IMG/VR virus record: IMGVR_UViG_3300037245_003526
Coordinates: 152,297 to 216,296 of that record
Direction: 5' to 3' (one strand)
Length of the DNA: 64,000 bases
Origin: a virus
Shown: piece after piece, positions 4,243 to 17,973 of the stretch
Layout of the letters: every line of letters starts with the position of its first letter
Numbering within the stretch: position 1 is the stretch's first letter
The notes under the pieces: generated by a model
Databases searched by the model: none
The model's input: only the letters and a program-made list of their open reading frames with translations
What the model was told of the DNA's origin: nothing
Translations under genes and position numbers: made by a program

Positions 4243-4330
4243 GCCCGGGTGGCGTAATTTGGCAGGCGCATCAGATTTAAGCTCTGATATCCATAGTGGT
4301 GTGCGGGTTCGAGTCCCGCCTCGGGCACCA
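4243..4330 (+). tRNA. tRNA-Leu (anticodon TAA), class II
   Basis: manual fold: acceptor GCCCGGG/CTCGGGC, anticodon loop TTTAAGC, long variable arm, T-arm GCGGGTTCGAGTCCCGC, 3' CCA. Confidence 0.8.
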
Positions 4331-4350: not shown

Positions 4351-4962
4351 ATGAAAAGTGAAAACATATGTCTATTTGATATGGACGGTACAATAGTTGA
4401 TTTTGATTCTCAAATGCAAATAGACTTAGAAAAAATGAGAAGTCCTGATGAACCAATTGTTGATCCATGGGATCGTAATTATCCATATATGCAAGCAAGA
4501 AAGTATTCTATTATGAGTCAAGCTGGTTGGTGGAGAAATTTGAAACCAATTGCTGGAGGAATGAATCTTTTAAATGAAGCAGTCCTGATGGGTTTTAATG
4601 TTCATATATTAACTAAAGGACCAGTATTAAGACCTGATGCATGGAAAGAAAAAGTTGAATGGTGTCAAGATCATTTAAATCTAAAAGAAGATAAGATTAA
4701 AATGACTATCACTGAAAATAAAGGTATGGTATATGGTAAAATTTTAGTTGATGACTTTCCTCCATATGTTAAAAAGTGGCTTGAAAATAGACCAAGAGGT
4801 TTAGTTATTATGCCTACTTGTGATTATAATAAAAAATATGAACATCCTAATGTTGTAAAAATTGATTATAATAATCTTGAGAGTGTTTTATACGCTCTCT
4901 CATGTATGAAAAAAGTATTAGATAGAAAACCTAATGAGAAATTATTATTAAACAAAATTTGA
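4351..4962 (+). CDS. HAD-superfamily hydrolase (5'-nucleotidase-like)
   Basis: N-terminal LFDMDGTIVDFD = the HAD DxDGT motif. Confidence 0.6.
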   Translation: MKSENICLFDMDGTIVDFDSQMQIDLEKMRSPDEPIVDPWDRNYPYMQARKYSIMSQAGWWRNLKPIAGGMNLLNEAVLMGFNVHILTKGPVLRPDAWKEKVEWCQDHLNLKEDKIKMTITENKGMVYGKILVDDFPPYVKKWLENRPRGLVIMPTCDYNKKYEHPNVVKIDYNNLESVLYALSCMKKVLDRKPNEKLLLNKI

Positions 4963-6769: not shown

Positions 6770-6857
6770 GGCGAGGTGGCGTAATCTGGGATCGCAGTAG
6801 CTTGCTAAGCTATCCAGGGTAAAACCTGTCTCGGTTCAAATCCGGGTCTCGCCGCCA
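6770..6857 (+). tRNA. tRNA-Ser (anticodon GCT), class II
   Basis: anticodon loop TTGCTAA, long variable arm CAGG-GTAAAA-CCTG, T-loop TTCAAAT, CCA. Confidence 0.8.
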
Positions 6858-6865
6858 TAAAATAA

Positions 6866-6955
6866 CGCGGTGTCGAGTAGTGGTTAGCTCACTGGGCTCA
6901 TAACCCAGAGTTCTTTAACGAGAGCACGGGTGTTCGAATCACCCCACCGCAACCA
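6866..6955 (+). tRNA. tRNA with anticodon CAT (Met/initiator-like) carrying an unusually long variable arm
   Basis: anticodon stem CTGGG/CCCAG (three G-C pairs), loop CTCATAA, C1:A72 mismatch, 19-nt variable arm with stem GTTCT/AGAGC, T-loop TTCGAAT, CCA. Confidence 0.5.
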
Positions 6956-6960
6956 TATTC

Positions 6961-7034
6961 GGCGAGGGGTCGTTGGTGACCGGTTAGAGCTCATATCTCT
7001 GATTAGGTGAGATCGTCACTCACACTCGCTACCA
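6961..7034 (+). tRNA. tRNA-like element, possible CAT-anticodon tRNA (Ile2/Met?) with a non-canonical D region
   Basis: acceptor GGCGAGG/ACTCGCT (6 of 7 bp), anticodon stem-loop TAGAG-CTCATAT-CTCTG, T-arm GTGAG-ATCGTCA-CTCAC, ACCA tail; D-arm irregular. Confidence 0.3.
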
Positions 7035-7037
7035 GAT

Positions 7038-7139
7038 GACGAGTGACTTATACATTGTTAAATGGGCAGAATTAGCTGCTGGGTACCCGTAAAATCCACT
7101 CATGGATTGAGCAGAAATTTCGCGTATAAGTCACTCGAC
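7038..7139. repeat. structured element bounded by a 16-bp imperfect inverted repeat (GACGAGTGACTTATAC ... GTATAAGTCACTCGAC)
   Basis: terminal inverted repeats with 1 mismatch enclose ~70 nt containing nested stems (CTGCT/AGCAG; ATCCA/TGGAT; GGGTACCC palindrome); no ORF. Confidence 0.45.
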
Positions 7140-7158
7140 CAAATTTAATGGTGAATAT

Positions 7159-7485
7159 ATGAAAGTATTTTGTGATAATTGTGAACATTTTGATTCTAGA
7201 CATGCTATGTATGAAAAATGTTTACATCCAGAAAACCAGAAAGTTGTAGAAATAAAAGAAACATATTCAACACCTAAAAGTAGTTATAAAACATCTGAGT
7301 TTGATCCGTGTCAACTAAATTCAGAAAATGATTGTAAATGGTTTGAACCTAACCTAACAAATTATTTACATATTAAATTAACAAATTTTTTAAAAAGAAT
7401 TATGGTCGCATCGTCTAATGGCAAGGACAAAAGATTTTCGATCTTTAAATCGGGGTTCGATTCCCCGTGCGACTACCAAAAATAA
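7159..7485 (+). CDS. Cys-rich hypothetical ORF; its 3' part overlaps tRNA-Glu, so it may be spurious or shorter
   Basis: CDNCEH..C N-terminus looks protein-like, but the last ~80 nt coincide with a well-formed tRNA. Confidence 0.2.
   Translation: MKVFCDNCEHFDSRHAMYEKCLHPENQKVVEIKETYSTPKSSYKTSEFDPCQLNSENDCKWFEPNLTNYLHIKLTNFLKRIMVASSNGKDKRFSIFKSGFDSPCDYQK
7404..7478 (+). tRNA. tRNA-Glu (anticodon TTC)
   Basis: acceptor GGTCGCA/TGCGACT, D-stem GTCT/GGAC, anticodon stem AAAGA/TCTTT with loop TTTTCGA, T-loop TTCGATT, CCA. Confidence 0.65.
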
Positions 7486-7710: not shown

Positions 7711-7795
7711 GGGGGGTTCGCATAGCGGCAATTGCGTCTGGCTGTAGACCAGATACCTTCGGGTTACCCAGGTTCGAGTCCTGGATCCCTCACCA
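7711..7795 (+). tRNA. tRNA-Tyr (anticodon GTA), bacterial-type long variable arm
   Basis: acceptor GGGGGGT/ATCCCTC, anticodon loop CTGTAGA, variable arm ACC-TTCG-GGT, T-loop TTCGAGT, CCA. Confidence 0.8.
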
Positions 7796-15383: not shown

Positions 15384-15450
15384 TCTTAGAATGATTCATA
15401 CATAAATCATTAACCCCTCTCATGATCGTTGTATGAATCATTTTTTATAT
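15384..15450 (+). terminator. hairpin (12-bp inverted repeat ATGATTCATACA/TGTATGAATCAT) followed by a T-run, lying between two tRNAs
   Basis: inverted repeat followed by TTTTTT; either a terminator or a processing site. Confidence 0.4.
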
Positions 15451-16839: not shown

Positions 16840-17250
16840 ATGAAAAAAGTATTTTTAGGTGGAACATGTAATAATTCAACATGGAGAGATGAATTAATTG
16901 AAAAATTAGAAATTGAATATTTCAATCCAGTTGTTGATGATTGGACTGAAGCATGTATGTTAGAGGAAATAGAACAACGAGAAAAATGTTCTGAATGTCT
17001 ATATGTAATAACACCTAAAATGACAGGTGTATTTGCAATAGCAGAAGCTATAGAAGATTCTATAACACGTCCAGAAAAAACCATATTATGTGTTTTAGAA
17101 AAGGACGGAGATCAAGAGTTTGACATTCACCAATTAAAATCCCTCAAACAAGTTTGTGGTATAGCTAAGAAATACCATTCAAGTGTATTTAATTCTTTAC
17201 AGGACGTTGCTGACTTTCTAAATTTAACATCAAGACTTACAGTCAGTTAA
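16840..17250 (+). CDS. nucleoside 2-deoxyribosyltransferase-like protein
   Basis: N-terminus KVFLGGTCNNSTW... resembles the KIYLAGP motif of that fold; weak. Confidence 0.35.
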   Translation: MKKVFLGGTCNNSTWRDELIEKLEIEYFNPVVDDWTEACMLEEIEQREKCSECLYVITPKMTGVFAIAEAIEDSITRPEKTILCVLEKDGDQEFDIHQLKSLKQVCGIAKKYHSSVFNSLQDVADFLNLTSRLTVS

Positions 17251-17373: not shown

Positions 17374-17973
17374 ATGAGAATTAATTTGAAAAGATTATTA
17401 GATAAGAAAGATGTAATTAAGAATGGTCATTTTCAACTAACATCCGGTCGTCATTCTGATACTTATATTAATAAGGATTCAATTTATTGTATTCCTGAAT
17501 TATTTGAATTAATAATTTTAGAAATGTCCTTAATAATAAGGAACTCTTTTCATTATGACATAATTACAGGTCCAGCAATAGCAGGTGCTGTTTTAGCTGC
17601 TCCAATTGCTAACTCTCTTTCTACTATATTTATTTATCCTGAGAAGGTTCAATTGTGTTCACTTGATTACGAAGTTGTAGATGAAGAAATGCAATTCAGA
17701 AGAGGATATGATAAAGTTTTAGAGAATAATATTAATGTTGTAATAGTTGAGGATATAATAACTACTGGAAAGTCAGTAGAATTGACAACTGAAGCAATTG
17801 AAAAACATGGTGCTCAAGTTAGTGGTATAGTATCAATATGGAATAGGACTGGATGGAAAACAGATAAGTGTTCAACAGTATCTTTAATAGATGAACCAGT
17901 TGAATCTTGGGATCCTGAATCATGTCCATTGTGTGTTGAAGGTATTCCATTACAAAATCCAAAAGAATTATAG
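17374..17973 (+). CDS. pyrE: orotate phosphoribosyltransferase-like (type I PRTase)
   Basis: GHFQLTSGRHSDTYIN resembles the OPRT N-terminus; VVIVEDIITTGKS is a PRPP-binding motif. Confidence 0.55.
   Translation: MRINLKRLLDKKDVIKNGHFQLTSGRHSDTYINKDSIYCIPELFELIILEMSLIIRNSFHYDIITGPAIAGAVLAAPIANSLSTIFIYPEKVQLCSLDYEVVDEEMQFRRGYDKVLENNINVVIVEDIITTGKSVELTTEAIEKHGAQVSGIVSIWNRTGWKTDKCSTVSLIDEPVESWDPESCPLCVEGIPLQNPKEL

Follow-up and report, generated by a model that had tools for sequence, protein, structure and literature searches.

The window analyzed here is the whole 64,000-nt stretch of IMG/VR record IMGVR_UViG_3300037245_003526 (positions 152,297–216,296), and this work concerns two adjacent elements within its array of tRNA genes, which we call E1 (a tRNA(CAU)-like RNA gene) and E2 (a structured RNA gene of 102 nt). 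The DNA is AT-rich (~30% [G + C]) and derives from an uncultured phage. As exact protein matches place the window on a 244,552-bp contig of the Joint Genome Institute (JGI), the source is a jumbo phage. The window encodes, among others, a DNA polymerase, a DnaB-type helicase, a portal protein and a distantly gp23-like major head protein that shares only ~24% identity with its counterparts in cultured phages. Within the window ARAGORN identifies 21 tRNA genes, all on the + strand and dispersed between positions 4243 and 26587 amid small open reading frames (ORFs) and genes of nucleotide metabolism. CCA is encoded by every gene for a sense-codon tRNA (20/20) and is lacking from the gene of a suppressor tRNA(cta).

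E1 and E2 are preceded by tRNA-Ser and tRNA-Met and followed by tRNA-Glu and tRNA-Tyr, and they make up the sole long part of this closely spaced run that is not called by any tool (Table 1). The gap that holds them (6956–7158) combines a high GC content (0.44) with strong folding, which is unusual among the intergenic gaps of the tRNA region; just one further gap there (19437–19685) is comparably GC-rich and strongly folded. An earlier reading of the letters and open reading frames of this DNA (the sequence-only reading) had placed the elements directly after the tRNA cluster; they do adjoin tRNA genes, but lie inside the dispersed array of 21.

Table 1. Positions of E1, E2, their parts and the neighboring RNA genes in the window.
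Feature	Position	Strand	Evidence or detail
tRNA-Ser(gct)	6770–6857	+	ARAGORN; Rfam tRNA, 48.5 bits; upstream member of the same RNA gene run
tRNA-Met(cat), 90 nt	6866–6955	+	ARAGORN and Rfam alignment (insertion in variable region); ends 5 nt before E1
E1, non-canonical tRNA(CAU)-like RNA gene, 74-nt cloverleaf, encoded ACCA end	6961–7034	+	Minimum-free-energy fold, homologues, covariation
E1 acceptor helix, 5' strand, 6 bp	6961–6966	+	Pairs with 7025–7030, including G1·U72; invariant in 4 sequences
E1 D-arm, 4-bp GGUC/GACC stem, loop GUUGGU (contains GG)	6968–6981	+	15/16 cells paired
E1 anticodon arm, 7–8-bp stem, invariant 7-nt loop CUCAUAU	6982–7004	+	Loop 6990–6996, CAT 6992–6994
E1 T-arm, 5-bp stem, invariant loop AUCGUCA	7007–7023	+	Covarying pairs
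E1 discriminator A and encoded CCA	7031–7034	+	Invariant in 4 sequences
Spacer E1–E2, 5 nt, GAUGA	7035–7039	+	UAUGA in L089
E2, 102-nt structured RNA gene, rod and three-way junction, ACCA 3' end	7040–7141	+	Fold statistics, covariance model, covariation
E2 P1, 5' strand	7040–7053	+	14 bp with 7124–7137; 100% of cells paired, 5 sequences
E2 asymmetric internal loop, 5' strand GUUAAAUGRGCA	7057–7068	+	Invariant; opposite strand 2 nt (7122–7123)
E2 P2a and P2b, 5' strands	7069–7080	+	7069–7073 with 7117–7121; 7076–7080 with 7110–7114; RNAalifold consensus
E2 hairpin A, invariant GG/CC stem, variable 4-nt loop	7081–7088	+	Loops GUAC, AGAU, GGAC, GUUC
E2 hairpin B, 5–6-bp stem, invariant loop CUCA	7093–7108	+	In invariant ACUCAU, anticodon-like CAU
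E2 P1, 3' strand	7124–7137	+	Inverted repeat and covariation
E2 ACCA tail, discriminator-like A and CCA ('RCCA' motif)	7138–7141	+	Invariant in 5/5 homologues

Relatives of the locus were reached through matches of the neighboring proteins in a large protein collection, the decisive leads being a phospholipase A2 (PLA2)-like ORF and other neighbors with close and intermediate homologues. These matches led to short metagenomic contigs, on which the elements were located with profile hidden Markov models (nhmmer) and a covariance model (R1 for E2). Four diverged homologues of E2 (contigs L083, L088, L086, and L089) and three of E1 (L088, L086, and L089) were obtained, with one copy per contig and always on the gene strand. 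When the DNA of the locus was searched against a phage collection with blastn, the matches were to tRNA-Glu only. The ORF that follows E2 in the window (ORF7159) is an orphan, and a 367-aa protein has no relatives in IMG/VR; the PLA2-like ORF has 29 relatives there, which have this single gene in common and lack the tRNAs.

The minimum-free-energy (MFE) structure of E1 is a cloverleaf, which the sequence-only reading had proposed in an imperfect form together with the CAT loop and the ACCA end, and which is borne out by compensatory changes in the anticodon and T stems. The thermodynamic z-score of this fold is just −1.6. Across four sequences, 97.8% of the cells of its 23 pairs are paired, and four pairs are altered on both sides: 28:38 (A-U/G-C) and 29:37 (G-C/A-U) in the anticodon stem, and 47:63 (G-C, G·U, A-U) and 50:60 (A-U/G-C) in the T stem. 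Slid controls, in which the partner was moved by 1–3 columns, gave 0–1 double-changed pairs vs the four observed. All one-sided changes but one result in G·U on the + strand, equivalent to A·C on the opposite one. The four sequences are identical in the anticodon and T loops, in the acceptor helix and in the ACCA tail, and there are a few substitutions in the D loop.

With respect to detection, E1 is not called by ARAGORN at default settings, and is reported as tRNA-Met(cat) when the threshold is lowered to 80–85%. The Rfam tRNA model (RF00005) does not match E1 at the gathering score, nor at E ≤ 10 with an 82-nt query. Several features of the conserved tRNA core are absent: the D stem begins directly after the acceptor helix without the linker nucleotides 8 and 9, position 8 is a G rather than U8, and the T loop has A54 and U58 swapped relative to the canonical U54/A58 (T54-Psi55-C56 with A58), with U55, C56, and G57 retained. 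At the base of the acceptor helix a G6967·A7024 mismatch is found. Other features are those of a tRNA, namely the four-arm cloverleaf supported by covariation, the 7-nt anticodon loop with U33, CAU and the purine A37 (C-U-CAU-A-U), and the discriminator followed by CCA. By structure E1 qualifies as a tRNA, by sequence profile it does not; it is an unusually deviant yet conserved tRNA-like gene.

In the two relatives without E1 (L084 and L083), its slot is occupied by a canonical tRNA(CAU), which makes a diverged tRNA of the Met or Ile2 type, or an RNA mimicking one, the most likely identity of E1. E1 retains A73, G2-C71, and C3-G70, which are Met identity elements in E. coli, and it may still be a Met- or Ile2-type tRNA. 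Because of its deviant core, a role as a non-decoding mimic is a real possibility as well.

E2 has a different architecture. From 5' to 3' it consists of P1, the asymmetric loop, P2a, a 2 × 2 internal loop that separates P2a from P2b, P2b, a three-way junction with hairpins A and B, a variable 3' junction, the 3' strand of P1 and ACCA. These parts form a rod, in which a 14-bp acceptor-like helix is stacked on a 10-bp interrupted helix, followed by the three-way junction. The two strands of P1 are a perfect inverted repeat of 14 nt with 70 nt between the arms, and ACCA stands immediately 3' of it. Inverted repeats of 16 bp had been reported for this element from the letters: the repeat is real and perfect over 14 nt, but arms of 16 nt include one A·A mismatch, and the ACCA that follows had been missed. 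The fold of E2 in the window has a free energy of −35.1 kcal/mol (z −4.1 to −4.3), with 0/200 shuffles as good, and over all five homologues z ranges from −4.1 to −5.8. A perfect 14-nt repeat alone is not rare in this DNA; E1 and E2 stand out from chance because they are conserved in related phages and covary there. The other perfect 14-nt inverted repeats of the window are short-loop, T-flanked hairpins of the terminator type.

In P1, 14/14 pairs are kept in every sequence, with three double changes (U-A/C-G, C-G/U-A, and A-U/G-C). Two further pairs are altered on one side only; in each the result is G·U on the + strand, for which the − strand would have A·C. They therefore point to pairing in RNA, against DNA repeats read by a protein. 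Double changes are also present in hairpin B, at 60:75 (A-U/U-A) and 64:71 (C-G/U-A), and in P2a, at 35:86 (A-U to G-C) and 36:85 (U·U to G-C), which convert GAAUU/AUUUC into GAGGU/ACCUC. In the central helix P2, 86% of the cells are paired, and the rod model of P2 is the MFE fold of L088, L086, and L089, the three more diverged homologues. The covariation score of E2 was reached by 0/500 shuffles. We consider P1 and hairpin B well supported and P2 moderately supported; hairpin A (GG-N4-CC) is simply compatible with the data, and its KpnI-like palindrome is not conserved. The invariant 12-nt strand of the asymmetric loop is a candidate partner-binding site. The invariant AUGAG, considered as a candidate for a pseudoknot or antisense pairing, shows no variation among the homologues, and a search of the window gave no target for it.

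The position of E2 among the relatives is that of a tRNA gene. The order in the window is Ser-Met-E1-E2-ORF7159-Glu-ORF7499-Tyr. In L088 and L086 it is Met-E1-E2 followed after 5 nt by Glu-ORF7499-Tyr, and in L089 it is Met-(27 nt)-E1-E2-HNH ORF-Glu-Tyr. In L083, a canonical tRNA(CAU) and an unrelated 57-nt spacer precede E2-ORF7159-Glu, and L084 (Ser-ORF-Met-canonical tRNA(CAU)-Glu) has neither E1 nor E2. The spacer between E1 and E2 is 5 nt in all phages that have both elements (4/4). With tRNA-Glu following 5 nt after E2 in L088 and L086, E2 serves as neither leader of ORF7159 nor terminator. The boundaries of conservation are sharp, with an onset exactly at G6961 and an end right after A7141, and L083, whose entire upstream part has been replaced, resembles the window from 7039/7040 onward. 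Between the window and L088 the identity is 77% for E2 and 87% for E1, compared to 92–95% for the flanking ORFs, and P1 is still fully paired. In all these respects E2 behaves as a member of the tRNA array.

The junction between E2 and tRNA-Glu (7142–7403 in the window) is a hot spot for insertions. L088 and L086 have no insertion there; the window and L083 share a Cys-rich orphan ORF (7159–7485, extending into tRNA-Glu), and L089 has an ORF resembling an HNH endonuclease (L089:7866–8422). The suggestion that E2 is a relic of a homing endonuclease finds no support for E2 itself; the HNH gene of L089 is located 3' of it. Further upstream in L089, an ORF for an RNA 2'-phosphotransferase (Tpt1/KptA-like, PF01885; L089:7178–7573) immediately precedes the group of tRNA-Met, E1, and E2.

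The tRNA genes around the elements were compared between the window and L083 as well. Identity is 72% for tRNA-Glu and 54% for tRNA-Tyr (7404–7478 and 7711–7795 in the window, L083:491–565 and L083:783–869), vs 84–89% for the ORFs and 98% for E2; the L083 version of tRNA-Tyr is missed by default ARAGORN. The tRNA genes are swapped or diverge much faster than the adjacent protein genes, a pattern that suggests a mosaic replacement of tRNA alleles.

We searched for further copies of the elements at several levels. There is no second copy of the E2 arms in the window, and R1 likewise finds one copy in the 64 kb. A scan of IMG/VR for the exact 14-mers returned 48 chance matches to a single arm and no element with both arms. 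Scans with diverged patterns of E2 and E1 (stems-free, loops-only, and conserved-block) in viral, metagenome and genome collections placed E2 nowhere else, and the 20 matches of the E1 pattern in genomes arose by chance in GC-rich bacteria. As the collections were searched by exact patterns only, absence elsewhere is weak evidence.

Known RNA classes were compared with both elements. An Rfam scan, advised by the sequence-only reading, did not assign a family to E1 or E2: no tRNA, transfer-messenger RNA (tmRNA), C4, signal recognition particle (SRP), riboswitch or ribozyme model matched either element, in a scan of the whole window at the gathering score or at E ≤ 10 on slices of 401, 82, and 113 nt. 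Self-cleaving ribozymes (the hepatitis delta virus-like 'theta' ribozymes found near phage tRNAs, hammerhead and twister) were rejected, since strand order and core motifs do not fit by eye and Rfam gave no ribozyme match. ARAGORN in tmRNA mode at a low threshold did not detect a tmRNA, including the two-piece form, in 6951–7200, in line with Rfam. The window as a whole lacks a tmRNA; L089 encodes a genuine one (L089:1250–1629, tag AETFSTFAAADDYVYADAQAA), which is detected and is unrelated. The only call of an intron-containing tRNA, on the reverse strand at a 70% threshold, is produced artificially by the inverted repeat. E2 is not an intrinsic terminator either, as the terminator scan was negative, the 70-nt interior is unlike that of a terminator and the element is followed in the window by ACCAAAUUU, without a U tract. 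Finally, intermolecular pairing of E1 and E2 through GUCACUC/GAGUGAC was rejected because the changes in each strand are compensated inside its own element. As far as these tools can tell, E2 is an undescribed RNA family confined to a small clade of uncultured jumbo phages. Of the identities that the sequence-only reading had offered for E2, a small non-coding RNA or a processing or recognition structure is supported by its conservation, covariation, strand specificity and tRNA-like 3' end. The same reading would have been undone by a lack of both conservation in related phages and transcript ends, or by an ordinary tRNA followed by a simple terminator; we find conservation in related phages, an E1 that is not an ordinary tRNA and an E2 that is not a simple terminator.

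Based on these results, we consider it probable that E1, a non-canonical tRNA(CAU)-like gene, and E2, a new small RNA of the tRNA operon, are separate, selectively maintained genes of the + strand whose transcripts undergo a tRNA-like maturation. The pair are small tRNA-like RNAs embedded in phage tRNA clusters. Their position in the array, the tRNA-like spacing, the helix with A-CCA ends and what is known of the substrates of ribonuclease P (RNase P) suggest how such a maturation might proceed. The run Ser-Met-E1-E2-(Glu) would be transcribed as a single precursor, in which RNase P would cut 5' of G6961 and of C7040, using the helix and the RCCA tail. Cleavage would release E1 and an E2 of ~102 nt with tRNA-type ends, and E2, with its tRNA-like 3' end, could accumulate as a stable small RNA. 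It might then act on a protein or RNA partner via the invariant internal loop and the apical loop, the two invariant single-stranded segments of E2 being the obvious candidates for partner contacts. Bacterial RNase P recognizes its substrates by the acceptor/T helix and by pairing between GGU in its RNA and the substrate's RCCA; dimeric phage pre-tRNAs with close spacing, pre-4.5S RNA, phage M3 RNA and phage C4 antisense RNA are processed by it as well (PMC11143913).

Several observations weigh against this reading. P1 has 14 bp vs the 12-bp ruler of acceptor and T-stem in tRNAs, and E2 lacks a T loop, so that recognition by RNase P would have to depend on the helix and RCCA alone, as for 4.5S-type substrates. 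The center of E2 has two mutually exclusive pairings, and the MFE fold of the window and of L083 uses the alternative hairpin (7065–7069 with 7076–7080). The cloverleaf of E1 is the MFE fold in 3/4 homologues, L089 being the exception, and its core departs so far from the canonical one (G8, no linker, A54/U58, no Rfam score) that decoding is uncertain. The invariant loop of E2 has no antisense target in the 64-kb window, where 11 matches with up to 2 mismatches were found vs 14.8 expected by chance. The four to five homologues come from one narrow clade and are partly close kin, and the covariation counts are therefore small and not independent. Lastly, we infer the transcription, processing sites and stability of E1 and E2, as well as their function, from the features described above.

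A more modest explanation is that E2 is a processing or insulating hairpin, of the RNase III type or blocking exonucleases, which separates or stabilizes transcripts of the array and is kept only as a double-stranded rod. P1, P2a, and P2b together form a nearly coaxial helix of ~24 bp, the loop of hairpin A and the 3' junction vary freely, and hairpins also follow other tRNAs of the window (15390–15442, 19778–19828, and 20517–20554). A pure rod, however, needs no invariant 12-nt loop strand, CUCA loop, three-way junction or ACCA placed as in a tRNA; the remaining post-tRNA hairpins are simple and short-looped, and L084 has an otherwise similar array without E2. We therefore hold this explanation to be unlikely, though not negligible.

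A more far-reaching explanation, to which we give about as little credence, is that E2 is a mimic or decoy of tRNA-Met or the initiator, which together with E1 would engage or titrate a host factor directed at tRNA(CAU), such as methionyl-tRNA synthetase (MetRS), formyltransferase, an anticodon nuclease or a toxin. A CUCAU loop is present on three consecutive RNAs (tRNA-Met, E1, and E2), and in E2 the invariant ACUCAU and ACCA are at opposite ends of a stack of ~30 bp. The G2-C71 pair and A73 of E2 resemble Met identity elements, and the swapping or faster divergence of tRNA genes in the clade would be expected under host factors that target tRNAs. On the other hand, the loop of hairpin B has 4–6 nt vs the 7 nt of an anticodon loop, and E2 is a straight rod rather than L-shaped. 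Covariation cannot probe the function of loops without variation, no linked gene is a candidate partner, the neighbors of E2 being different in every relative, and the explanation is wholly inferential. In its boldest form, which we put forward tentatively and consider doubtful, E2 would be a rod-shaped tRNA mimic that founds a new phage class, is matured by the tRNA-processing machinery, presents ACCA ~30 stacked bp from its CAU loop, and with E1 captures, titrates or is charged by a Met/initiator-tRNA host factor (MetRS, formylase, a tRNA-directed toxin or an anticodon nuclease). If true, this would be an RNA-based countermeasure or a device for translation control.

Much less probable is an element that acts at the level of DNA, either the footprint of a miniature inverted-repeat transposable element (MITE), as had been suggested from the letters, or a palindrome bound by a protein (origin or operator). 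The unit of ~100 bp is bounded by 14-nt perfect inverted repeats, and the adjoining site takes insertions (ORF7159 in the window and L083, the HNH gene in L089). E2 is single-copy in the 64 kb and in each relative, with none found by the exact-pattern scans of three sequence collections, and therefore not a MITE; the arm sequence occurs in the window only in E2, in answer to the multi-copy check that the sequence-only reading had recommended. A target-site duplication is absent, and the flanks GAUGA and ACCAAAU contain no direct repeat in register. Also against a DNA element are the conserved ACCA tail, a position and spacing like those of a tRNA gene, covarying internal helices (hairpin B and P2a), and one-sided changes that are exclusively G·U in the + sense, including those in the arms.

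It is equally improbable that E1 is a decaying tRNA pseudogene and/or that E2 encodes a peptide of 28 residues. Standard tRNA detectors fail on E1, and an ATG-initiated ORF of 28 codons, starting at 7062 inside E2, for which no ORF had been noted earlier, is present in the window and L089. The compensatory changes in the stems of E1 and its invariant loops indicate purifying selection, which rules out a pseudogene in decay. The ORF exists, yet it is not conserved as coding: it lacks a stop in L088, L086, and L083, where the frame continues into tRNA-Glu or the following ORF, compensating indels shift the frame in its middle part, and the codons that appear conserved coincide with helices whose partner strand precedes the ATG. 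The least credible proposal casts E2 as a 5' leader that regulates in cis (as riboswitch, thermometer or protein-binding leader) the Cys-rich ORF7159, which starts 18 nt downstream. It draws on the adjacency of E2 and this ORF in the window and L083 and the lack of both in L084, but fails on the E2 copies of L088 and L086, which have tRNA-Glu 5 nt on and no ORF7159, on the unrelated HNH ORF after E2 in L089, on a perfect 14-bp closing helix that is too stable for a switch, and on the lack of any Rfam riboswitch match.

Other features of the array deserve mention. The tRNA-Met(cat) upstream of E1 has a long variable arm of 16 nt, a C1xA72 mismatch and a GGG/CCC anticodon stem, the latter two of which are hallmarks of an initiator. 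A long variable arm is normally confined to Leu, Ser, and Tyr tRNAs; in the window it is found on four others, this tRNA-Met (6866–6955), Gly(tcc) (19686–19771), Lys (23660–23747), and Cys (24321–24406). The extra arm of tRNA-Met covaries, with GUUCU/AGAGC in the window, GCUCU/AGAGC in L088 and GUUCC/GGAAC in L084. These arms could affect aminoacylation identity (compare the allo-tRNAs, PMC5389517).

The tRNA region ends with an amber-suppressor-type tRNA (anticodon CTA, labeled Pyl by ARAGORN; 26513–26587), downstream of which lies a perfect 15-bp hairpin (26600–26638). This tRNA may be a sign of TAG read-through or recoding in part of the genome. The three hairpins mentioned above, which follow tRNA genes (Pro, Gly-tcc, and Gly-gcc), are simple, with arms of 16–21 nt and short loops, and may be processing or termination signals inside the array. 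A further orphan structured element is located directly upstream of tRNA-Gly(tcc) (19449–19680, 230 nt, intergenic, GC 0.42). It is closed by an imperfect inverted repeat of ~27–35 nt, the longest in the window, and folds with −82.5 kcal/mol (z −5.7, 0/200 shuffles as good); it is unlike E2 and has no Rfam match at E ≤ 10.

Genes of nucleotide and nicotinamide adenine dinucleotide (NAD) metabolism are interleaved with the tRNA region: NAMPT, an NT5C nucleotidase, a nucleoside deoxyribosyltransferase-like gene, a phosphoribosyltransferase, a DHODH-like gene and orotidine monophosphate (OMP) decarboxylase (4–1386, 4351–4962, 16840–17250, 17374–17973, 22936–23652, and 25090–25767). Pfam annotation of ~40 ORFs, in which genes of nucleotide metabolism were seen, showed no tRNA-processing or aminoacylation enzyme adjoining E1 and E2.

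Annotation of tRNA clusters in phages usually relies on tRNA finders alone, and the parts that these miss are treated as spacer; the 'spacer' of this cluster holds two conserved, covarying RNAs. E1 illustrates the distance from the canonical core that a tRNA-like RNA can reach under selective maintenance: the universal tRNA covariance model does not recognize it. E2 combines tRNA-type ends with a wholly different body and belongs to no described family, its only real precedents being species 1 and 2 of T4. As an independent second example with a covariation-supported structure and invariant loops, it offers a tractable handle on the roles of RNAs embedded in such clusters. The RNA genes of this clade turn over faster than the adjacent protein genes, which fits ideas that phage tRNA repertoires are shaped by host defenses that target tRNAs.

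Among known RNAs, E1 resembles the elongator tRNA-Met and tRNA-Ile2 (CAU) in its cloverleaf of 74 nt, the 7-nt loop with U33 and A37, the 5-bp T stem with 7-nt loop and A73-CCA. It differs from canonical tRNAs in the missing 8–9 linker, the A54/U58 T loop, an anticodon stem of 7–8 bp and scores below the thresholds of the model and of default ARAGORN. Non-standard cloverleaves have been described in phage tRNA clusters before: bacteria and phages contain 8/4 and 9/3 'allo-tRNAs,' some of which were proposed to act in regulation instead of decoding (Mukai et al., 2017; PMC5389517). In contrast to these, E1 retains a 7/5 acceptor/T branch and lacks a long variable arm; E2 does not form a cloverleaf at all.

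E2 shares with pre-4.5S RNA, the C4 antisense RNA of phages P1 and P7 and the M3 RNA of phage phi80 a helix of its 5' and 3' termini followed by single-stranded RCCA, and C4 and M3 are, like E2, phage-encoded small RNAs. It matches none of the family models of C4 (RF01695), SRP and others at E ≤ 10, and lacks an antisense target in the window.

The closest analogues of E1 and E2 are species 2 (rnaD, 119 nt) and species 1 (rnaC, 139 nt) of T4, to which, to our knowledge, no function has been assigned for about fifty years. With R1 applied to the T4 locus with filters off, the best score was 10.5 bits (E 0.84), which gives no indication of homology. Of the two elements, both predicted from sequence, E1 is a complete cloverleaf of 74 nt, and E2 is a rod that is closed by a perfect terminal helix of 14 bp and contains a three-way junction; rnaC has a tRNA-type T arm, and rnaD a long stem followed by an ACCA-like end. 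The major head protein of the window, being distantly gp23-like, adds a further likeness to T4. Both rnaD and rnaC are non-tRNA small RNAs, and they stand head-to-tail directly after tRNA-Arg within a phage tRNA cluster, and E1 and E2 likewise lie within a tRNA cluster, on the same strand and with tRNA-like spacing (5 nt on both sides of E1).

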